A stretch of DNA of 56,702 bases from Enterobacteria phage 9g: the sequence record NC_024146.1; one strand, given 5' to 3'. Position 1 is the first letter of the stretch. Each line of letters begins with the position of its first letter. A program made the position numbers and the translations under genes. The notes beneath the pieces are model-generated. The model did not search any database and was not told the origin of the DNA. It worked only from the letters and a program-made list of their open reading frames with translations. Positions 2,010 to 43,787 of this stretch are shown one piece after another.

Positions 2010-2998
2010 AGACGAAATCCTACAATTACCCCACGTAGATTTTCACCATAAAAAATAATAGGAGTTGAAAGACCCCTTTCGTCCTTTTCATTGAAACGCG
2101 AAGCATCCCAATCTGTCGCAAGTCCTTTCAACTGCATAATGAGATCTATATTATACACGCCAATTGACTTAGATTCACGGAACATTGCACTAGCACCATC
2201 CAGCTCGTTGTAATGTGTGCGTACAACACCATTTTCCATGTAAATACGCCCATCCCGCTCACAGAACGGTTTTATCTTTTCTAAGCAATTAAAAAGCTCA
2301 GTATCAAGCGTATAGACGTTGGCCCCATTTTCTGTACGCTCAATTATCTTATCAATGTTAGGCCACTTTAATTCCAGCAATTGTGTACGCAACCAGCAAC
2401 CGTCTTCGTAGTGAAATGTCATACTGGTATCTGTACATTGAATTCTTACTGGTGGCTTTTTAATACGCAATAATTCTTTGATGGCCATACGTGGCACAAC
2501 ACAATCTACAGGGAATACAGCACCGAACCAATACTGTATAATACTAGCGTTGTTGGTCGCGTACATGCTGCCCTGTTTTACCAGCACGCCGCAAGACCAC
2601 GGGCGGGAAGCATCGTCGCTTATAAACGGCGTTACACGGCTTAAACCGTTGAGAAAAAGCTGACCGTCTATTTCGTGAATTGTTCCTTCTGGCTCTACGT
2701 GTGCAGTTGGTTTCTGAAGAGTATCCACACTGACCTTAAAGCCACCAGACTTAATGCTCAACTTACCATTCGCTAACATTGTCATCTGTACAGCTTCGTC
2801 ACATGCTGCAATAGCCTTGAGCATTGGTTCAGCTTTAGGAGTACAGTCAATATTTAGTGGTACTGGACTACATAATGAAATAGTTCCGTTAAACCCGCGC
2901 ACAGTACCATCAACAATACGGAAGTGAGTTAAACCTTCCTGAAGTTCTTTCTTAGCTACAGAACCCTGAACAAACTTTAAAGCATCAAGTAAATCCAT
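2006..2998 (-). CDS. Putative beta-sliding-clamp-like processivity factor
   Basis: 330 aa. Motif layout resembles DnaN: N-terminal L..ALKFVQGSV, then GKLSIKSGGFKVSVDTL (cf. DnaN ...RSGRSRFSLSTL) and ATNNASII (cf. ATDGHRLA). Translationally coupled to the polymerase. Call is from remembered motif pattern, not a search. Confidence 0.45.
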   Translation of the reverse strand: MDLLDALKFVQGSVAKKELQEGLTHFRIVDGTVRGFNGTISLCSPVPLNIDCTPKAEPMLKAIAACDEAVQMTMLANGKLSIKSGGFKVSVDTLQKPTAHVEPEGTIHEIDGQLFLNGLSRVTPFISDDASRPWSCGVLVKQGSMYATNNASIIQYWFGAVFPVDCVVPRMAIKELLRIKKPPVRIQCTDTSMTFHYEDGCWLRTQLLELKWPNIDKIIERTENGANVYTLDTELFNCLEKIKPFCERDGRIYMENGVVRTHYNELDGASAMFRESKSIGVYNIDLIMQLKGLATDWDASRFNEKDERGLSTPIIFYGENLRGVIVGFRL

Positions 2999-3006
2999 AA
3001 GTAACC

Positions 3007-3960
3007 TTATTCGTCAAATAAATCCTGGAGACGTTCGTTGAACTTCCCATTGTGGTTAGCAAGAATCATAGCGTTGACCACACCATACGCCCATAAATTG
3101 TATGCAGCGCGTGATTCGTATATGGTTGAAAGTCGTTCGTATGTGAAACCTGACTCCTCTAAGTAGCGCAGAACATTATTCTGTTCTATTTCTGAAAGAT
3201 TACAGATGTGCTGCCCTTGATAGTGGCGTGACGGTGACTTTTCAGATACCTGCATTGGGCCCCACTTAGGAGTTTCAATAGCACCAAACGCCGCAGATTG
3301 AATCCAGGAGGATGAGTCACAGGAGTACCACGGGTAACGCTCCATAAGCGGGCGGGACGTAATACCAAAACCATGAACTTTAATCTTAGCGCGTCCACTA
3401 CCGTCCACAAGGTGCTTATCCCATACCCTGTCCAACCATACCTGAAGTTGTTGTGTACTCGCTCCAACAAGACCACCGAGCGTGATATACTCATAGTTTC
3501 GCACATAATGGTCCAGGTATTCAAAAGGTTCACCGGCGTGGAAGCATGGTAAAGGTCTTACACCTCTGGCTTCCATCTCTTCCTGGTTGCGCCACGTTTG
3601 AAGTGGATCACCAATACCATCGAGTACAGAAGCCATAAGCGAACCATCTTCCACACGGATGATATCTATGTTTCGTTGGATGTAATCACAGTATTCTTTA
3701 ACCGATAACGTAACTCCCAAAGTGTAAGCTGAGAACGCTCCGGAGTCGAGGAATATCTTGGCCCCATCGGCACGCATGGCATCAACATAGGATTGCTTTC
3801 CAACGTAGTGCCAGGATTCGAGAATGTTTGGAATATTTTCGACAACACGTTTTTCTTGTTCGTTGAGTTTGACATAGCGGTTCATTCCTGGTTTATAGCT
3901 GTTCGTATATACGGCAGCCATATAAATCTGAAAGGTATAGTTGATATCTTGTCTGTGCAT
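3007..3960 (-). CDS. dpdA: DpdA-like DNA-guanine transglycosylase (TGT superfamily) for 7-deazaguanine insertion into DNA
   Basis: 317 aa. TGT-like IFLDSGAFSAY (cf. TDSGGFQ) and overall TGT-like length; sits at the 3' end of the folE-queD-queC-queE operon. ATG at 3960 preceded by GGTGA. Confidence 0.75.
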   Translation of the reverse strand: MHRQDINYTFQIYMAAVYTNSYKPGMNRYVKLNEQEKRVVENIPNILESWHYVGKQSYVDAMRADGAKIFLDSGAFSAYTLGVTLSVKEYCDYIQRNIDIIRVEDGSLMASVLDGIGDPLQTWRNQEEMEARGVRPLPCFHAGEPFEYLDHYVRNYEYITLGGLVGASTQQLQVWLDRVWDKHLVDGSGRAKIKVHGFGITSRPLMERYPWYSCDSSSWIQSAAFGAIETPKWGPMQVSEKSPSRHYQGQHICNLSEIEQNNVLRYLEESGFTYERLSTIYESRAAYNLWAYGVVNAMILANHNGKFNERLQDLFDE

Positions 3961-4029
3961 TGTTCACCTAACAAATAAGCGCCCGTAGGCGCTTATTATA
4001 TTAAAGATAATGTATGATTCGCAAATCAG

Positions 4030-4644
4030 TTACTTTTTACACGCTTCAAGAAATTCCCGACGCCATGTGTCACCAGTCACGTCCGGTAATACACCATCAC
4101 CCAATGCAGTACGTCCGCGGAATGCTTTAGTGATGGTTGAGCTTCCGCATACCTGTTTAACACCGCGCGACTCCATGCACATATGTTTTGCATCGATGTA
4201 GACACACACAGCTTTCGGGTCTAAGTGTTCCACGATAGCATCCGCAATCTGATTAGTCAGACGTTCTTGGACTTGCAAACGTCGAGCGAAAGCATCAACT
4301 ACCCGAGATAACTTGCTGAGACCGACGATTTTTCCATTTGGGACATACCCAACCACTGCATGACCAATAATAGGAGCCATGTGATGCTCACAATGACTAT
4401 ATACAGGGATATCACGGACGATGACCATTTCATCACAGTTTTCCCCACCATCTTCAAATGTCTTGAACAGGGATGCGATATCAACAGAATAACCCCCGAA
4501 CCATGTAGCATAAGCCTTAGCTACACGATCTGGAGTTTCTACTAGACCTTCACGCAAGTCATCGCCACCTTCAATCAACTTTAAAATCTTTTCAATACTG
4601 TGCGAAATTTCTGCTCTGTTTGTCATCTTTGTAAATTCATTCAT
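4030..4644 (-). CDS. folE: GTP cyclohydrolase I (FolE)
   Basis: Clear FolE core: ETPDRVAKAY, VIVRDIPVYSHCEHHMAPI, GLSKLSRVVDAFARRLQVQERLT. The longest ORF begins with TTG at 4680 and overlaps queD; the ATG at 4644 with an upstream AAGGA is preferred (4626 is an alternative). Confidence 0.88.
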   Translation of the reverse strand: MNEFTKMTNRAEISHSIEKILKLIEGGDDLREGLVETPDRVAKAYATWFGGYSVDIASLFKTFEDGGENCDEMVIVRDIPVYSHCEHHMAPIIGHAVVGYVPNGKIVGLSKLSRVVDAFARRLQVQERLTNQIADAIVEHLDPKAVCVYIDAKHMCMESRGVKQVCGSSTITKAFRGRTALGDGVLPDVTGDTWRREFLEACKK

Positions 4645-4670
4645 GGTTTGCAGTTTCCTTGTGTGGTCAA

Positions 4671-5204
4671 TTATTTGCAATAGTTAACATGGCATTTGGA
4701 CGTTTCTTCAATGGTGCATTCTACCAATTCAACACCATATTGGTCAAGTAGTTGAGGACCAATTACGTCAACCATATATGCAGCTAAGTTTTCCGCAGTT
4801 GGGTTGAATGGTAAAGCTACCAAAGAATTAAAGAAAGGATCGTAATCTTCATCCGTCACTAAATTGTTCTCACGTGCAAACTTAGTTGATGCAACAACAA
4901 TGAGCGAATTAATCATGCTGTCTTGTTCCCAATGCAGGAACTTATGATCCCAATTATCTTCCAACCACTGGCAGAGCGTAGTTTTAACCACACTAAAGTC
5001 GATAACCCGACCTACGTCGTCCAGCGAACCTTCTAGAGCAAATCCACTTACAGACTTAACGTAACCTTCCGACAATGTTTTCTTTGGTGCAACTTTAAAA
5101 TGGAACTTATAGTTGTGACCATGAAGATGACGACATTTGCTTTCATGCCCTACAACACGATGCCCAGCGCAAATCTCATGTGAACGAATAACAGTGTAAC
5201 CCAT
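4671..5204 (-). CDS. queD: 6-carboxy-5,6,7,8-tetrahydropterin synthase (QueD / PTPS family)
   Basis: 177 aa. N-terminal CAGHRVVGHESKCRHLHGHNYKF (Cx..HGH zinc/catalytic motif of QueD/PTPS). Confidence 0.85.
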   Translation of the reverse strand: MGYTVIRSHEICAGHRVVGHESKCRHLHGHNYKFHFKVAPKKTLSEGYVKSVSGFALEGSLDDVGRVIDFSVVKTTLCQWLEDNWDHKFLHWEQDSMINSLIVVASTKFARENNLVTDEDYDPFFNSLVALPFNPTAENLAAYMVDVIGPQLLDQYGVELVECTIEETSKCHVNYCK

Positions 5205-5206
5205 TT

Positions 5207-6622
5207 TTATTCCTCGTTTTCGTATTTAATAACTTCTTGTGCGTTATTAATATTAAACGCAGTCCGGCGCATCATGCAAGGGCCGCAAGTACCGCAATGC
5301 AAATTCCCGTTACGGTAACAACTCCAGGTGTGCTCCAACGGGGCCCCTAAACGCAGACCTGTAGCGACAATTTCGTGCTTCATTAAGTTACCTACAGGCA
5401 TGAGCACTTCAACGCGCTTACCATCCCCTACAGCGAACGGTAACACCTGATTAAAGCGATTAATAAACTCAGGTTCGTTGTCCGGATAGGCTCCAGCTTC
5501 TTCTAGGTTGTTACCAAGAACAATATAGTCGAAACCGTTAGCTTCTGCGTATGCAGTAGCAACAGAAAGCATCACAAGGTTACGAGCTGGAACCCATTCA
5601 TGCGCAAACTCAGCGCCTTCTTCACCGCCAGCGATTGCAGCATCTTGATCAAATAATGGGCTATCCTTCTTATCATAAATTGGGATTGGAAATTCAATTA
5701 ATGGAACCCCCATCACTTCCGCAATCTTACGAATAGCATACAGCTCATTAGTTTCTGCACGACAACCATATTGGAAGTTAATCAGAGTAACATCTAAACC
5801 ATTGGACTTACACATTTGAGCTGCTACTGTGCTGTCCATACCACCACTGGCGACAACTAACGCGCGTTGAGTCTGCTTATTTGGAATAAGATCAACTTCA
5901 TTGCATACATCAGTTGATGTAACCACATTACATGAATAAGGCTTCAGCATCTGCTTAATAGCGCGGTTGGGTAGCATGTCTTCCTGGCTGGCGAAATACA
6001 TACCAGTATCAGTCTTACCAATCCAGATTGGACGATAATTACATGCTGTAAACACGCATCCCGGAAAGGAATCATGTGTTGCAAGGATTGCGAAGCTACC
6101 TTTCAATTTGCGAACAACTTCATGAAACACACTGTACAGGTAATTAAAGTCAGACAAACACATTTCATCTGCTGAAAGTGTACATTCTGCTAACTGTTCG
6201 ACAATCGCAGCACTATCAATCTTAGTCTGCAGGGCATAGGTACGAATGTCTTTATCGTTCGCAATAGTACCGTTATGAACAATAGTCCAATCATCCATGT
6301 GATACGGTTGCTGGTCCCACTCATTCTTGTCAACAATCCACTCTGTAGTCGGTTCAGCGCGAGCGTTACCAATCATTGTGAAGCTACCAATAGCTCCAGC
6401 ATGAGATGCAATGCGCCCAACTTTAACAAGACGTTCCAGTGACGTTTCCTTACCGACACTAACGATACGTTGCGGGTGCATACTGTGGTCACCATGCGTA
6501 AAGCGTACACCAAGACCATCACGACCACGCTTGATACTGGCTTTAATAAGATCCTCAATGTCGTTACGGATAATAAGACTTTCAGGTTGACCGTTAGTAA
6601 TAACACCAAAGATAGAGCACAT
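5207..6622 (-). CDS. queC: Gat-QueC fusion: class II (Ntn) glutamine amidotransferase domain fused to a QueC-like 7-cyano-7-deazaguanine synthase domain
   Basis: N-terminus after the start Met is CSIFGV (Cys2 nucleophile, as in AsnB/GlmS-type GATases). C-terminal half has the PP-loop SGGMDS, VPARN, and the zinc motif CGTCGPC of QueC. Start set to the internal ATG at 6620-6622 so that Cys is residue 2; it lies 1 nt after the upstream gene's stop. Confidence 0.85.
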   Translation of the reverse strand: MCSIFGVITNGQPESLIIRNDIEDLIKASIKRGRDGLGVRFTHGDHSMHPQRIVSVGKETSLERLVKVGRIASHAGAIGSFTMIGNARAEPTTEWIVDKNEWDQQPYHMDDWTIVHNGTIANDKDIRTYALQTKIDSAAIVEQLAECTLSADEMCLSDFNYLYSVFHEVVRKLKGSFAILATHDSFPGCVFTACNYRPIWIGKTDTGMYFASQEDMLPNRAIKQMLKPYSCNVVTSTDVCNEVDLIPNKQTQRALVVASGGMDSTVAAQMCKSNGLDVTLINFQYGCRAETNELYAIRKIAEVMGVPLIEFPIPIYDKKDSPLFDQDAAIAGGEEGAEFAHEWVPARNLVMLSVATAYAEANGFDYIVLGNNLEEAGAYPDNEPEFINRFNQVLPFAVGDGKRVEVLMPVGNLMKHEIVATGLRLGAPLEHTWSCYRNGNLHCGTCGPCMMRRTAFNINNAQEVIKYENEE

Positions 6623-12961: not shown

Positions 12962-13888
12962 TTACTGTGCAGCGTCATCACCTTCAGTGGAACGTTTCCA
13001 CGGTGGAGTCTTGGTCTGAGCTGCTTTAGCGATATCGTCCTGGACTTCCGGTTCTGCATGGTTAGCAGTACCAGTGTTCTGAGCTTGAGTTTGCGGTTGC
13101 TCTGCTCCAGGCTGTACCTGCTGAGTTGCCCAGTTAGGCTGCTGTGTGGTTTGTTGCTGCTGCGGCTGCTGCGCACCAGTAGCCCACGGTTGAGATTGTG
13201 CCGCGCTGTTAAAATCAACTGTTCCAGACTGCTGCTGTTGCTGTACCGGCTGCTGCGGCTGTTGTTGCTGCTGCGGTTGCTGGAACCCCTGAGCCTGAGG
13301 TTGTTGCTGCTGTTGCTGCGGCTGCTGCCCAAATGCGCCCGGGAAACCCTGCTGCTGCGGTTGCTGCTGTTGTTGCTGAGCACCACCGAACGCACCACCA
13401 CCAAATGCTGGAGATTGTGCTGCCGCTGCCGGAGTTGATTTAGGCAGGTTAGCCATATCCGCCTTAGTTGCGTATACAACACCTTCCATATTATCAATTG
13501 CTTGATAAATCTGAGGTTCGTTGTTTGGCTCATAGCCAGGTTGCTGACGAACTTTCACTTTCAGGTTAAACGGAATACCGTGCAGTTGTTCCGTATCGTT
13601 CCAGACTGGAACTTTAACAGCACGAGACAGCTCTGCCAGTTCTTCCATTGCAATCTGTACAGCGACAGGGTTCGCGTTCTTGACGTTGTAACCGCCAAAC
13701 ATCACACGACCAGCAAAATCACCCTGCATGATCTTAAACTGAAGATTCAGACGCGCACCGCCTGGAGTTTTAGTCGGTTTGATTTCAGAGTTTACAATCT
13801 GAACAACATACCAACCAGCGGGCATCAAGCTGTTGTGTTGACGCTCTGCGTGTTGTCCAGCGTTAAATTGCATTCCTAAACCGGCCAT
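12962..13888 (-). CDS. Putative ssDNA-binding/annealing protein (DUF669-like) with long Gln/Pro-rich linker
   Basis: 308 aa, ATG at 13888 with AAGGGG upstream. Globular N-terminal domain followed by a ~110-aa Q/P/G-rich low-complexity segment; adjacent to a Sak4-like ATPase gene, as is typical for DUF669 proteins. Confidence 0.5.
   Translation of the reverse strand: MAGLGMQFNAGQHAERQHNSLMPAGWYVVQIVNSEIKPTKTPGGARLNLQFKIMQGDFAGRVMFGGYNVKNANPVAVQIAMEELAELSRAVKVPVWNDTEQLHGIPFNLKVKVRQQPGYEPNNEPQIYQAIDNMEGVVYATKADMANLPKSTPAAAAQSPAFGGGAFGGAQQQQQQPQQQGFPGAFGQQPQQQQQQPQAQGFQQPQQQQQPQQPVQQQQQSGTVDFNSAAQSQPWATGAQQPQQQQTTQQPNWATQQVQPGAEQPQTQAQNTGTANHAEPEVQDDIAKAAQTKTPPWKRSTEGDDAAQ
13093..13435. repeat. 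CAG/CTG-rich low-complexity DNA encoding the poly-Gln/Pro linker
   Basis: Runs of ctgctg/ttgctg on the plus strand (e.g. 13200-13400) correspond to QQQQQQPQQQ... in the minus-strand protein. Confidence 0.7.
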
Positions 13889-14633
13889 TATTGTACCCCT
13901 TTGATTTTGTTAATGATTGCACCGAGATGTGGATATTCCATCTGTCTAACGAACCAGAACGATCTTTACATACATTTGACAGATCTGGTCTTGTCAGCAG
14001 ATAACGAAAATCTGCTTGAGTATTTTGGTCTTTACCAACACTAATCTTGAACACTTCGTCAAAAAAGTATGGTAATTCTGGACCTAATTTTGCACCAGGC
14101 ATAGAAGGACCATAAGACGTAATACCTGTTAACTCGTCCTTATTACGGGACATTTTAGCTGCCATGTATACGTTAAGTCCAGGGATATCTCGAAAAGCAC
14201 GAACCAACGTTTGCATCTTCTCAATGAGATCCCCATAAGCCTGACGCGGATCCTTTACAGTACGCTTCGCATTGTTAAGGCACTTTTCAGCAATCTCAGT
14301 AAGTGAATCCAGCGCAAGAGACTGAAAGCGCGGTAAACCATCTTCACCTACAGGATTGTTTGCAGGATTAGTTGCCCAAACGTAAGCCTGCTCCACATCC
14401 TGGATATTTTCAACCGTGATGGTTGGAATATCGTAACAGATATCTGGTCTGTTTTCACCAAACACACGAGCAATGTTATTCGGTGTTAAAGACAGAAGCC
14501 CAGACTCTGCAGAAATCAGCAACGGTCTTGGAAGAGTTGCTGTAAGCATGGTCTTACCCATACCGGATTCACCATACACAAGCATCTTGACACCAGTGTC
14601 CAAAACTGCCTGCGCGGTAGTTGTAAATTGCAT
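13863..14633 (-). CDS. Sak4-like RecA-fold ATPase (phage recombination protein)
   Basis: 256 aa. Walker A GESGMGKT near the N-terminus; ATG at 14633 with AAGGAA upstream. Confidence 0.6.
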   Translation of the reverse strand: MQFTTTAQAVLDTGVKMLVYGESGMGKTMLTATLPRPLLISAESGLLSLTPNNIARVFGENRPDICYDIPTITVENIQDVEQAYVWATNPANNPVGEDGLPRFQSLALDSLTEIAEKCLNNAKRTVKDPRQAYGDLIEKMQTLVRAFRDIPGLNVYMAAKMSRNKDELTGITSYGPSMPGAKLGPELPYFFDEVFKISVGKDQNTQADFRYLLTRPDLSNVCKDRSGSLDRWNIHISVQSLTKSKGYNNGRFRNAI

Positions 14634-19421: not shown

Positions 19422-19652
19422 ATGACTCACCAAGATCTTATAAAAAGAAACATCAGAACTGCAATGAACAAATCAGAGGAATTTTCACACAACTGTACTG
19501 ATGGTACTCATAAAATTAGATACGAATATATGGGATCCTCAACTGTGGTTACATTTGAGAAAGATGAGTATCACGTTGGAGATTTTTCAACACCAGATTA
19601 TGACGAGATGTTTGAATACGTTGTATGTGGGTTCTTAGAGTTGCACGAATAA
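19422..19652 (+). CDS. Hypothetical protein (lone plus-strand gene within the minus-strand block)
   Basis: 76 aa. Own promoter-like element, strong SD (GGAGGA), and a terminator directly downstream. Confidence 0.6.
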   Translation: MTHQDLIKRNIRTAMNKSEEFSHNCTDGTHKIRYEYMGSSTVVTFEKDEYHVGDFSTPDYDEMFEYVVCGFLELHE

Positions 19653-19656
19653 TATA

Positions 19657-19686
19657 ATGGGCGCATATAGCGCCCATTTTTTTTAT
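19657..19686. terminator. Bidirectional Rho-independent terminator
   Basis: atgggcgc(19657-19664) / gcgcccat(19670-19677), 8-bp stem, 5-nt loop, then T9 on the plus strand; A/T-rich flank on the other side. Lies between convergent genes 19422..19652 (+) and 19683..22058 (-). Confidence 0.6.
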
Positions 19687-22058
19687 AGCTTAATAATCTT
19701 CTCCATGCGTTCGATATCCACTAAATAACACTTCATCCTCGGTGGTACAAAATCAGGACCGAATAAACTTGAGAAGTCCATAGGCCTCATTTCAGCAAGA
19801 ACTTCCATAGACATCAGACCATAAATTGTATTGTCTATGACCTGCAATATGTTGTCGTTTCTTGTCTGCTTGAACGCTTTAAATTGCCTACAATAAGTAC
19901 ATAAATCACTCCGTGTAACTATAAACGAGTCCTTAAACATTGGGAATTTATCATACACATAAGCCTTCACTTCTCCGTCCAAGAATCTTTTTATAGTCGC
20001 GAGCATTATCTTCTCACGGCTTGTACTATCTGTAGACCCAATTTGCCCACTGTTACGCTTCTCTAAGAAACGCTCGTTACCCTGATCGATAAATGACTCA
20101 GCCCAACGATAATGTTCCATAGTAACAACGGGTCGTTCACTGTTATCCGCAACAGCAAGAAGAGAAGCTATACGCAATACCTTCAACGCCTTCCTTGTGT
20201 ACATCTGACGAATTACTTCGTCTTGCACCTGCTCACCATCGTTGCCGCTGTTCAGGAACTTCGCAACAACATTATCAAGATTATCAAACGCTTCGTGTAC
20301 CTCTGCTTCCATTTCAACATAACACGGAGCAGTCCCTGACATAATACGCACAGCTTGTTTATAGATAGCTCCAATAGTGCGCAGAATTGCTTCTGGATAT
20401 TCCAGGAGCATACTCTTATTCATCAACGGGCGGTTAGCTGTACATTCCCATGCGATAATACGGGACATGAAGCCACTAGACATCATACGGTCATCCACGT
20501 TCCCGTAAAATTCATCTGGTGTTGTTTCACCTGCAAAACTATACGCCTTAACCTTACCACCAGCAGTCGTATTATCTTTACTAGAGTGCTTTGAACCACC
20601 AGAGAAAGCATAGAAATGCCCCTTGTCATAAAGGGAAAGCATTTCATCCATAATGTCTTTAGCTTTACCAACTTCCATCTTACCGTTACGGAAAAACGCA
20701 CCGACTTCAGTCTTATAGTTGATGGATGAGCCACAAGACATAACGGACGTATCCATTATGACGTCCTTGCGCAATGCAGCATCAGACGCATAGGTACTTG
20801 TATCTAGGACACGTTCAATACCAAATATCTGCTGACCGTCTTGACCGCCATAATTGGATACTTGAGAAAGAATAGTTTCAATGTTAGAGCGAAACGCTTC
20901 TTTACCAATACCAGAACGTGCAATTAATACAAAGTAGTTATTCAAACCACTTCGTGTGACTGTGTTCCACGCCTTACCGCACATACCACTAAATAAAGCA
21001 AGAGCAGACAGAATACTAATGTCTTTAATAGGCAACAAGCTCGCTTTATACATATTACGCGCAACCTCGCCCATAAAGCCCGGAGGCCAAGCCAAACCGT
21101 CTGCCTGCTCTTCAGTGTAATTACCATCTGTGGTCAACACTTCTTCAGGTGGGCGTTCTGGTGTAGTTGCTTGACGTAGTTTTTCCGTGCGCTCTATAGC
21201 TGCATTAACGTTATTCTGAACTATCTGCATAAGTCCCATAGATTTAACATGGGCATCATAACGATAGTTGCGAATCATTCTATCCAGGTGATACGGACGT
21301 TTAATTTTTTCACCAGGCATACGACGGGAATCATCATAACGACTACTCATTGGTGAATACATGAATAGACGTCTTACCTGGAAATTGTACTTACTCTTAA
21401 AGCAAAGAAAGTCAATTAATGCAAATTCTGCTTCAGACTGAGAAGGGAAACAACGTTCGCCGATAGAAGTATCAACTTCTTCAGCTCTCCAACGACCTTC
21501 CCATAGCTGCTTAAACAATGTTCCGTTTTCTTGTTCGCACAGCTGGATATAGACATCCTGGTCTTCCATTGCATATGGGTCGTTACTAAAATCTTCTTCA
21601 GTAAGTTCCAGCATTTGGAAGCCATCAGACTCATTAATCTCACTCATCTCAGACATAAGTTGATGAATGAGATTAGCGATATACCCTTCGCTTTCACTGC
21701 CTGGAGCACCAGACACAATACGCGGAGTAATATCCCAGTGATCGCCTGTACAGATAATAAAACGATACTGCGAATACACTTCCACACCATCACGGCGCTT
21801 ACCAGCCTGAGGGATGGAATAAATCCATGTATGCAACCCATCACCACTTCTGGAAATTTCCGTATAGCTATGGAACGATTCAACAATCTTCTTATATCGC
21901 TCACCAGCAACTTTCTTTTCCATTTCAGACATGGTATCTTTAATGTCCATGTCTATACAACAGAACGGGTCACTTGGAAGTAGATAGAAACCTAAACGCA
22001 AGTTATGGCCAATCTCGTTATAATAACGAACGCAGCGTTCAGCATCTTCAAAAGACAT
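19683..22058 (-). CDS. Putative DNA primase (PrimPol/AEP-type N-terminal domain) with C-terminal NTPase-like region
   Basis: 791 aa. AEP motifs CIDMDIKD (DxD) and SRSGDGLHTWIY (sGxGxH); later LIARSGIGKE (P-loop-like). Confidence 0.6.
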   Translation of the reverse strand: MSFEDAERCVRYYNEIGHNLRLGFYLLPSDPFCCIDMDIKDTMSEMEKKVAGERYKKIVESFHSYTEISRSGDGLHTWIYSIPQAGKRRDGVEVYSQYRFIICTGDHWDITPRIVSGAPGSESEGYIANLIHQLMSEMSEINESDGFQMLELTEEDFSNDPYAMEDQDVYIQLCEQENGTLFKQLWEGRWRAEEVDTSIGERCFPSQSEAEFALIDFLCFKSKYNFQVRRLFMYSPMSSRYDDSRRMPGEKIKRPYHLDRMIRNYRYDAHVKSMGLMQIVQNNVNAAIERTEKLRQATTPERPPEEVLTTDGNYTEEQADGLAWPPGFMGEVARNMYKASLLPIKDISILSALALFSGMCGKAWNTVTRSGLNNYFVLIARSGIGKEAFRSNIETILSQVSNYGGQDGQQIFGIERVLDTSTYASDAALRKDVIMDTSVMSCGSSINYKTEVGAFFRNGKMEVGKAKDIMDEMLSLYDKGHFYAFSGGSKHSSKDNTTAGGKVKAYSFAGETTPDEFYGNVDDRMMSSGFMSRIIAWECTANRPLMNKSMLLEYPEAILRTIGAIYKQAVRIMSGTAPCYVEMEAEVHEAFDNLDNVVAKFLNSGNDGEQVQDEVIRQMYTRKALKVLRIASLLAVADNSERPVVTMEHYRWAESFIDQGNERFLEKRNSGQIGSTDSTSREKIMLATIKRFLDGEVKAYVYDKFPMFKDSFIVTRSDLCTYCRQFKAFKQTRNDNILQVIDNTIYGLMSMEVLAEMRPMDFSSLFGPDFVPPRMKCYLVDIERMEKIIKL

Positions 22059-22240
22059 AAGTAAATGCAGGTTAGACGGTTTCTTATCATTGCCGTCTTT
22101 ACGAAGTGGGACATATCCCCTAAATCATCGTCCCACACATAAGGTTGTTTTTCTGATGATGTACCTGGATGAAAACCGCAGACAGCCCACTGTTCGTATT
22201 GTTTAATTTCTTGAGGAAAAAGTTCCAGCATGTTATTACC

Positions 22241-22477
22241 TTAAAACGTAGCGGGATTAATTTCAAATAACGAACGTGATGGTACAACATCAAAGTTGAC
22301 ATCTACCAGCTTAAAAGAATTCGTGTAAACACACCATGTACCGACTTTTTCATTAAAGACGGGCTTGTCATTATTAAATGCGTACACGCAACCATCAGAA
22401 TCTGTTGCAATATATCTTGTGTCTTTTGGTACTTCTACATCTGAACCATAATAGTGAATGGTAATTAAATCTGACAT
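22241..22477 (-). CDS. Hypothetical protein
   Basis: 78 aa, ATG at 22477 with AGGAGA upstream. Confidence 0.55.
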   Translation of the reverse strand: MSDLITIHYYGSDVEVPKDTRYIATDSDGCVYAFNNDKPVFNEKVGTWCVYTNSFKLVDVNFDVVPSRSLFEINPATF

Positions 22478-22549
22478 GATATTCTCCTACGATCCATTAG
22501 GACACACCTAGTATATACTGATGGATCGCAGGGGGTTAACCCCTGCAAA

Positions 22550-22948
22550 TTATGGTACTAAGACCCAACGACAGGTGATGGGTTTACATGTTATCTGTTC
22601 TTTAGAGATAGTAATTCTGTCCCTGAACATTATTCTCGGATAAAAATATTGCATGTAATTATCCGAATCCGTTTTACATTGTGCATTCAATATGCGGGAG
22701 CTGACAATAAACTTCAGATCCGCCCAATCCTCCATAGAATCAGAAAAAGATAAGATACGCCCATTTCCACGGACTTTAGCTGTTGACTCAGCTGGTAGTC
22801 TATGGTTAATATCACACGGTAAGTCTAAAGCAGGTAGCTTCCCTTTGATTAATTTATCGGTATTAAAAGAACCAATTTCTAAAGTATGGATATTTTGACC
22901 TTTAATTGGTTCTTCAAACTTAACATCAACAACAAGTTTGACTAGCAT
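22550..22948 (-). CDS. Hypothetical protein
   Basis: 132 aa, ATG at 22948 with GAAGGT upstream. Confidence 0.55.
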   Translation of the reverse strand: MLVKLVVDVKFEEPIKGQNIHTLEIGSFNTDKLIKGKLPALDLPCDINHRLPAESTAKVRGNGRILSFSDSMEDWADLKFIVSSRILNAQCKTDSDNYMQYFYPRIMFRDRITISKEQITCKPITCRWVLVP

Positions 22949-29894: not shown

Positions 29895-30248
29895 ATGAGC
29901 TTGCAACGTTTTGACAATGCAGAACTCGCGTGTGAATTTGCAAAGCGCAAGTTCGCAAAAACAGGTACGCCGCGATGCGTACACGCGGCTATTGGGCAAA
30001 ATGGGGCAAAGTATTGGTACGTCGGTACAGTAGCTCAGATCAAGCGAAGATTCGCGACTACGCCCGAAATGCGCCGGCTTGGGTCCCCTACACTTATGCG
30101 AAACAGGCAGTTGGATAAAGAGGAAATTTATCAATTTCTTAGGAATTACACTGGTAAGGAGAATAGATTTCAGGTTGCAGCGAAAGAGTTTAATATCGGT
30201 CTTTCCACTGCTTATAAAATTTATCACATGTATGGGCGTTTAATATGA
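29895..30248 (+). CDS. Putative DNA-binding protein (C-terminal HTH-like)
   Basis: 117 aa, GGAG upstream; C-terminal FQVAAKEFNIGLSTAYKIY is HTH-like. Confidence 0.5.
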   Translation: MSLQRFDNAELACEFAKRKFAKTGTPRCVHAAIGQNGAKYWYVGTVAQIKRRFATTPEMRRLGSPTLMRNRQLDKEEIYQFLRNYTGKENRFQVAAKEFNIGLSTAYKIYHMYGRLI

Positions 30249-30460
30249 CTGCAATTGCTTATCGTAATGGTATACTGGCTGTAGATCGTCAGGTTACATG
30301 GGGTAATATTGCAACAACTACAGATAAAGTTCATACTGTCAATATTCCAGGAATTGGGCTTTGTCTTGTCGCAATGTCTGGTAAACTACGTCCTGTAACT
30401 GATATTGTGGATCATCTAAAACTACGGTTCATGGACGTAAAGAACCTTTCTCGGACTTAA
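30245..30460 (+). CDS. Hypothetical protein
   Basis: 71 aa, ATG overlaps the upstream stop (ATGA). Confidence 0.45.
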   Translation: MTAIAYRNGILAVDRQVTWGNIATTTDKVHTVNIPGIGLCLVAMSGKLRPVTDIVDHLKLRFMDVKNLSRT

Positions 30461-30486
30461 ATCCGGATTCCCGTTATGGTATTGCA

Positions 30487-30738
30487 GTGACGCAGGATCT
30501 TGTCGTATATCCTATCTACGGGGATGGTAAATTAGGTCTACCGGACACTAACGAATTTATTGCGGAAGGTAGCGCGTTTGAGTTCTTGATGGGTGCAATG
30601 GCTGGAGGTTGCACCGCCGAAGAGGCTGTACGACTGGCGTGCGTATATTGCGACAGTTGTGGTCAAGGGGTTAAATTCTATGACGTAGCCTACACTCTTA
30701 AAGTGGCGCAGTGTAAAATCGAGGAGAAACCATTTTGA
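30487..30738 (+). CDS. Hypothetical Cys-rich protein
   Basis: 83 aa from a GTG start with no clear SD; contains CVYCDSCGQ. Confidence 0.35.
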   Translation: MTQDLVVYPIYGDGKLGLPDTNEFIAEGSAFEFLMGAMAGGCTAEEAVRLACVYCDSCGQGVKFYDVAYTLKVAQCKIEEKPF

Positions 30739-43358: not shown

Positions 43359-43787
43359 ATGTCTTCAGAAAACAAACAAGTATCTACTGAAGTTGCAAAG
43401 AAAGCTGTTGGTACATCTTTCCGTGACTTTAACTTGAAAAAGAAATTAGAGAACGCTCCGCTGCTGCATTACCCGCTTGTTTTTCCAGGGCAGGGCGATA
43501 CAGGTCACTGGCTGAAGATTCGCAACCGCCACAGCGAAGAATTTCGTCAAGCGGATTTAAAAGCACAACGTCAGATCAGTGCGCTTGTCGTTGCCAACGG
43601 ATCTTTTGAAAACATTGATAAGGACATGCTCGACGATATCAATATGCGAGCGTTCTGTAAGTTGGTTGCTTCGTGGAGCTTCGAAGAAGAATGCAACGAA
43701 GACAATCTTCTTGAATTCTTTGATAATAACCCGTTTGCGTATGACGACATCAATCGTCTGGCAGCGCAAGATTCCCTTTTTTTCTAA
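43359..43787 (+). CDS. Tail assembly chaperone (gpG-like)
   Basis: 142 aa, immediately upstream of the tape-measure gene; ends ...QDSLFF* at a T_TTT_TTC slippery heptamer. Confidence 0.65.
   Translation: MSSENKQVSTEVAKKAVGTSFRDFNLKKKLENAPLLHYPLVFPGQGDTGHWLKIRNRHSEEFRQADLKAQRQISALVVANGSFENIDKDMLDDINMRAFCKLVASWSFEEECNEDNLLEFFDNNPFAYDDINRLAAQDSLFF

Follow-up and report, generated by a model that had tools for sequence, protein, structure and literature searches.

The N-terminal domain of the NrS-1 primase-polymerase, from a deep-sea vent phage, is the closest solved relative (PDB 6A9W, 6K9A, 6JON, 7RR3, 7RR4) of the primase of Enterobacteria phage 9g, and phage JenK1 carries the corresponding primase, gp58 (YP_009219338.1), as a single chain of 849 amino acids (aa). 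Phage 9g is the namesake of the genus Nonagvirus and was the first phage found to carry archaeosine-modified DNA (PMC6884629). The window analyzed here is the whole stretch of DNA in the 9g record (NC_024146.1; 56,702 nucleotides, nt), and our subject is the 5′ end of its primase gene on the minus strand, where an open reading frame (ORF) of 79 aa overlaps the start of a primase ORF of 791 aa. Compared with JenK1 gp58, the 9g record has one G fewer at 22111/22112, and two ORFs, of 79 aa and 791 aa, take the place of one gene. Judged from the sequence, the 79-aa ORF is almost certainly the frameshifted start of the primase, made up of 40 genuine codons followed by 39 out-of-frame codons. We further infer, with a probability of roughly three in four, that the G went missing in sequencing or assembly and not through a real mutation.

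In the 9g record the 79-aa ORF occupies positions 21992..22231 of the minus strand, begins with ATG and has the translation quoted in the initial annotation of this region. A Shine-Dalgarno-like sequence lies 7 nt 5′ of this ATG and overlaps the TAA stop of an upstream ORF of 78 aa. The 791-aa primase ORF (19683..22058, minus strand), listed mechanically from an internal ATG, shares 67 nt with the 79-aa ORF (22058-21992+1). Its frame is closed by a TGA at 22127-22125, 22 codons 5′ of the ATG at 22058, and is open from 22124; direct inspection of the sequence found no Shine-Dalgarno sequence before this internal ATG. The initial annotation had described the Shine-Dalgarno sequence, the start at 22231, the 67-nt overlap and the upstream TGA just as they are found here. 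It had also judged the first ~45 residues of the small ORF to be protein-like, which comes close to the actual boundary after residue 40 (Met40, 22114-22112). The suggestion that the ORF might be unannotated did not hold, as an exact-sequence look-up showed that its product is already deposited as hypothetical protein 9g_00026 (GenBank AHN84542.1, RefSeq YP_009032349.1).

Relatives were collected by a megablast search with positions 21500-22500, which returned 16 phage records representing 12 distinct phages, all of the genus Nonagvirus (subfamily Queuovirinae) and 94-98% identical to 9g. The primase is one coding sequence (CDS) of 2550 nt in 10 of the 12, with a start codon equivalent to 22231; the primases of the other two, SE1 and HdK1, also start at this position but are broken further downstream. 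A regular-expression check showed that all 12 relatives have GG at the site where the 9g record has a single G; the alignment and the blastn census place the indel there as well. They carry GATATGGTCCC in place of GATATG-TCCC at 22111/22112, and over a slightly longer span the site reads GATATGGTCCCAC in 11 of them and GATATGGTTCCAC in JenP2, against GATATG-TCCCAC in the 9g record. The change is thus GG to G on the coding strand, or CC to C on the plus strand. In every relative MLELFPQ...GDMVPLRKDGNDKKPSNLHLLMSFEDAERC is read in one frame from the ATG equal to 22231. When one G is inserted into the 9g sequence, an uninterrupted ORF of 2550 nt results (849 codons, closed by one terminal stop), which equals the length found in 10 of the 12 relatives. 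A single missing G severs the first 40 codons, and its repair lengthens the primase by 58 aa to the 849 aa of the relatives. A frameshift by sequencing error that would extend the primase N-terminus had been among the initial suggestions, with 22090-22130 as the suspected region, and the indel indeed lies within it.

The two ORFs also fit together at the protein level. Residues 1-40 of the 79-aa ORF are identical to residues 1-40 of the JenK1 primase, and in the repaired protein the identity to JenK1 extends over residues 1-58. Neither side of the break has decayed: the two stranded segments match JenK1 exactly in amino acid sequence. The repaired 9g gene and JenK1 gp58 have the same start codon, length, domain order and flanking genes, with 94.5% nucleotide identity; their C-terminal ~60 aa diverge through ordinary substitutions. 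For use at the peptide level, QPYVWDDDLGDMVPLR is the predicted tryptic junction peptide of the intact primase frame, and QPYVWDDDLGDMSHFVK is a predicted peptide of the 79-aa product.

An independent small leader or regulatory gene would be a different explanation of the 79-aa ORF, one that the initial annotation had considered. It would account for the good Shine-Dalgarno sequence and ATG, and the public record does list the ORF as a hypothetical protein. However, every relative uses the same Shine-Dalgarno sequence and ATG to start the primase itself, and the ORF is a separate unit in none of the 12. In a collection of ~15 billion proteins, the 79-aa product is the sole member of its 90%-identity cluster, whereas the cluster of the relatives' full-length primases has 227 members. 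A look-up of gene calls on contigs found no record of the 79-aa product, and a Pfam search of the ORF gave no match. The only family that it matches is PHROG phrog_3022 ('DNA primase'), and only at the N-terminal end of the profile: positions 6-41 are covered by residues 2-38 with E = 4.7e-4. That the match stops at residue 38 agrees with a product of which only the first 40 codons are genuine primase. A gene of its own at this position is thus exceedingly improbable, and the out-of-frame tail of the ORF (21992..22111) is without coding significance.

We then considered whether the 58-aa extension is an integral part of the primase. A tblastn search with the repaired first 166 aa matched 330 phage records, 301 of them collinear in one piece covering at least 80% of the query. 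The matches include Seuratvirus (42% identity), a Klebsiella phage (66%) and phages of Pseudomonas, Stenotrophomonas, Listeria and Lactobacillus (27-38%). An earlier homolog search with the repaired 198-aa N-terminus had returned no matches; it was replaced by an exhaustive HMMER search of 1.84 billion representative proteins, which returned 2817. Among the best 150 of these were 139 diverse full-size proteins, for which the median implied position of residue 1 was query residue 1, and only two of the 139 start at or after residue 55. Homologs starting at the equivalent of 22058 had been named at the outset as evidence that would speak against an extended N-terminus, and the alignments gave the opposite outcome. 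Three residues, W15, K28 and P30, reach at least 90% conservation in a family alignment of 35 sequences; they belong to a P-E-L...QW...K-P motif and fall within the stretch of the 79-aa ORF that is in the primase frame.

Structural modeling points in the same direction. The AlphaFold model of residues 1-198 has a predicted local distance difference test score (pLDDT) of 91.6 and a predicted template modeling score (pTM) of 0.87. Within the extension it has a predicted helix (7-10) and three predicted strands (15-20, 31-34 and 39-42); since the third of these spans residues 39-42, the frameshift point falls inside it. A Foldseek search with the model gave six entries of the NrS-1 primase-polymerase N300 as the only significant PDB matches (probability 1.0, E ~1e-9, 185-219 aligned columns). 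By sequence, too, NrS-1 was the only significant PDB match: using phmmer, query residues 29-167 could be aligned to NrS-1 residues 16-155 with E = 3e-9. On the strength of the predicted secondary structure, the pLDDT and the NrS-1 alignment, the 58-aa extension is assigned to the primase-polymerase fold. According to the model, a primase starting at Met59 would lack part of the catalytic domain.

The catalytic motifs themselves are found further downstream. D94 and D96 (IDMD) and H134 do not vary in the same 35-sequence alignment, and conservation of S129, G130 and G132 is at least 90%. Motif I, DxD (D94/D96), and motif II, SGxGxH (S129-G130-x-G132-x-H134), both lie downstream of the internal ATG and both align with NrS-1, which has the two catalytic motifs in common with the 9g primase. 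Identity between the two proteins is only ~22-26%, with a template modeling score (TM-score) of 0.5-0.6, and the function of the 9g protein is predicted from sequence and model. The N-terminal P-E-L...QW...K-P motif, unlike DxD and SGxGxH, is the 9g family's own and differs from NrS-1. Residues 504-653 of the 791-aa ORF match Pfam DUF3987 (PF13148) at 30 bits, above the cut-off of 27, with E = 4e-7. The match to Pfam AEP-TOTE, at 21 bits, is under its cut-off of 27, and membership in the AEP/PrimPol group therefore rests on structure and on PHROG, where phrog_3022 is matched with E = 5.9e-81. By these predictions the 9g protein is an ordinary phage AEP primase/helicase (phrog_3022), in which an N-terminal primase-polymerase domain is followed by a C-terminal DUF3987 helicase-like domain.

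A programmed -1 ribosomal frameshift or transcriptional slippage could also join the frame of the 79-aa ORF to that of the primase, and a programmed frameshift had initially been entertained. The relation between the two frames is indeed -1, ribosomes that changed frame precisely at Met40 would still make the wild-type protein, and programmed frameshifting does operate in the tail-chaperone genes of 9g. Such a frameshift in the tail assembly chaperone G/T genes was reportedly described by Xu, Hendrix and Duda in 2004. Like the primase site, the G/T site of 9g consists of two overlapping frames giving one longer protein. However, it has a slippery run, CCCTTTTTTT, that is conserved across phages, whereas the primase site has no slippery sequence and is split into two frames in the 9g record only. 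No X_XXY_YYZ heptamer occurs anywhere in the 79-aa ORF in its frame. The 130-nt stretch available for a shift (22124..21994) has neither an XXXYYY in any register nor a homopolymer of at least 5, its longest runs being GGGG from 22120 and TTTT from 22053. Transcriptional slippage typically needs a homopolymer of at least 7 A or T. Since all 12 relatives encode the primase in a single frame, there is no conserved recoding signal, and the two-frame arrangement arises from one private indel. Recoding at the primase site is therefore very improbable. As for the G/T site, CCCTTTTTTT is present in one copy in the 9g genome, at 43774-43783 on the plus strand; it has been confirmed by Sanger sequencing and programs a -2 and not a -1 frameshift (PMC4276943).

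How did the G come to be missing from the record? Flow-based chemistry such as that of Ion Torrent is prone to homopolymer-length miscalls. Consensus errors of Ion Torrent and early long-read data take the form of single-base run-length changes that break conserved genes, and the 9g record has several changes of this kind (13945, 22112 and 30418). For the 9g genome, an Ion Torrent PGM provided 111x coverage, assembly was done de novo with CLC, and the only Sanger confirmation mentioned is that of the tail-chaperone slippery site (PMC4276943).

Comparison of the whole 9g genome with three complete relatives, JenK1, FritzHoffmann and ChristophMerian, provided a census of indels. An unfiltered version was swamped by gappy alignments in divergent regions, and only isolated, clean-flanked indels of a length not divisible by three and differing from at least two of the three relatives were retained. 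Eight indels in the 9g record passed this filter, seven of them deletions. Three fall in large conserved genes, namely those for the primase (22112), a Sak4/RecA-like single-stranded DNA-annealing ATPase (13945) and an HslV-family peptidase-like protein (30418). The other five (17858, 22540, 24874, 25249 and 36605) are intergenic or 5′ of start codons and are uninformative either way. The filtered census found no indel at the G/T slippery site relative to the three relatives.

The two further genes are affected in much the same manner as the primase. In the ATPase gene (13863-14633, minus strand), a private 1-nt deletion at 13945 (TT to T on the plus strand) swaps the last ~20 residues for an aberrant tail, and the resulting ORF is longer, at 256 aa. 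The repaired protein has 248 aa, is 100% identical to that of JenK1 and is collinear in all three relatives; this deletion, too, is probably an error of sequencing. In the peptidase-like gene (30218-30738, plus strand), a private 1-nt deletion at 30418 produces the overlapping ORFs 30218-30460 and 30403-30738. With one base restored, the gene has an open frame of 173 codons, which is one frame in JenK1, FritzHoffmann and ChristophMerian at 89-98% identity.

A control census counted the private indels of each of the four genomes, again those of a length not divisible by three: 8 in 9g (2 of them also in JenK1), 4 in JenK1, 10 in FritzHoffmann and 2 in ChristophMerian. The idea that the 9g record has an unusual overall number of private indels was rejected, with 10 in FritzHoffmann against 8 in 9g. 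We kept a narrower claim: in 9g, three large conserved genes are each broken by a private deletion, and none of the private indels of the other three genomes does this to a large conserved gene.

Several points weigh against an error as the cause of the missing G. The total of 8 private indels makes the 9g record no outlier, and coverage of 111x should remove random errors. The change from GG to G concerns the shortest possible homopolymer, whereas Ion Torrent errors more typically affect long runs. The primase run of only two bases is in this respect unlike typical flow-based homopolymer errors, and because GG is the minimal run length, the support that homopolymer chemistry lends to our attribution is weak. 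The exact repaired 849-aa protein occurs in no other assembly represented in the 15-billion-protein collection. Finally, the primase gene was amplified by polymerase chain reaction (PCR) by Tsai et al. 2017 with no reported sequence check or re-sequencing. Whatever the cause, the indel itself, its position, the ORF restored by one base, and the conservation and structural role of the N-terminus stand. The dG+ modification was considered as a separate cause of the missing G and set aside, since PCR amplification of Ion Torrent libraries should keep it from reaching the sequencer.

The deletion could instead be real in the sequenced 9g stock, a recent spontaneous frameshift leaving a 79-aa fragment and an at best poorly initiated 791-aa primase without its three N-terminal β-strands. 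Survival of the phage would then be explained by residual activity of the truncated enzyme or by laboratory hosts on which the phage can do without its primase. This explanation takes the deposited sequence and its 111x coverage at face value. It is also in keeping with the position of the catalytic motifs, since DxD and SGxGxH are both encoded after the internal ATG, and no independent 9g sequence contradicting it was found. On the other hand, the ATG at 22058 lacks a Shine-Dalgarno sequence, the lost part is a conserved and confidently modeled piece of the fold, and only 2 of the 139 homologs are that short. A real deletion must moreover coincide, in a viable lytic phage, with two further frame-breaking private deletions, in the Sak4-like ATPase and the HslV-like peptidase genes. 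There are no signs of relaxed selection around the break, and the Ion Torrent platform is known for exactly this class of error. We consider a recent mutation of the stock unlikely. It is just as doubtful that a viable, efficiently lytic 9g really has the single G and manages with a primase lacking its first three β-strands, with no primase, or with a non-canonical -1 event at a non-slippery site.

If the missing G is an error, as is most probable, the course of events would be as follows. The primase/helicase gene would be one gene of 2550 nt (849 aa) read from the ATG at 22231. One G of the GG dinucleotide at 22111/22112 would have been lost through an Ion Torrent homopolymer-length undercall that survived into the consensus. 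Mechanical ORF calling on the gapped record yields the 79-aa ORF and a 791-aa ORF from the first internal ATG, while the real phage would make a normal full-length primase/helicase.

The 79-aa 'upstream ORF' owes its existence to the one-base gap in the record and is no biological feature. The finding has little biological importance, and its value is in the curation of a reference annotation: the 9g record contains a spurious hypothetical protein, 9g_00026, and a primase frame without 58 conserved N-terminal residues, and at least two further genes, those of the Sak4-like ATPase and the HslV-like peptidase, are affected likewise. Cloning the 9g primase by the annotated ORF would give a protein with an incomplete catalytic domain. 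The locus may also serve as a worked example of how a frameshift artefact can be told from a leader ORF or a recoding site. The features of the locus are collected in Table 1.

Table 1. Features at the 5′ end of the primase gene in the phage 9g record (NC_024146.1)
Feature	Position	Strand	Basis
Shine-Dalgarno-like TAAGG for the primase start at 22231	22239..22243	-	sequence; same start annotated in 12/12 relatives
True 5′ end of the primase, codons 1-40 (MLELFPQEIKQYEQWAVCGFHPGTSSEKQPYVWDDDLGDM)	22112..22231	-	identical in JenK1 and other relatives; PHROG match; carries W15, K28 and P30
1-nt deletion site, directly after Met40	22111..22112	-	alignment, 12-relative regular-expression check, blastn census
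Primase codons 41-58, (V)PLRKDGNDKKPSNLHLL	22059..22111	-	open in the primase frame, severed from any start codon in the 9g record; identical to JenK1 when repaired
Out-of-frame tail of the 79-aa ORF (SHFVKTAMIRNRLTCIYLCLLKMLNAAFVIITRLAITCV + TAG)	21992..22111	-	+1 reading of primase codons 41-80
Rest of the primase/helicase, codons 59-849 and stop	19683..22058	-	791-aa ORF; Pfam DUF3987; catalytic motifs

Broken primase genes are also present in two of the relatives. The primase is annotated as three CDSs in Salmonella phage SE1 and as four in Escherichia phage HdK1 (locus ~2770-5336). The breaks are single-base homopolymer insertions (in T, C and A runs) relative to JenK1, BRET and 9g, and the HdK1 primase has nine indel sites, including a 5-T expansion and a 6-nt insert. 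The HdK1 paper gives PacBio RSII or Illumina as the platforms used. The breaks in both primases look like sequencing errors in the respective records, and this fragmentation shows that such artefacts readily enter records of this phage group.

Two further differences between 9g and its relatives were observed on either side of the primase gene. Upstream, a G+C-rich inverted repeat, CAGGGG-GTTAA-CCCCTG, lies at ~22528-22545, between an ORF of 132 aa (stop at 22550) and the ORF of 78 aa (start at 22477). In the relatives the repeat contains an additional C (C5 vs C4) and has another base in the loop; this may be a hairpin signal or simply a run of variable length. Immediately downstream of the primase, a small gene on the opposite strand (19422-19652, plus strand) is a single CDS in 9g (76 aa), JenK1 (231 nt) and BRET (225 nt), whereas FritzHoffmann and ChristophMerian annotate two ORFs of ~45-50 aa each at the equivalent position. 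A G-run at ~19532 within this gene is GGGG in FritzHoffmann and GGG in the others. As regards the record as a whole, the genome length is given as 56,703 base pairs in the 9g paper (PMC4276943), compared with the 56,702 nt deposited.

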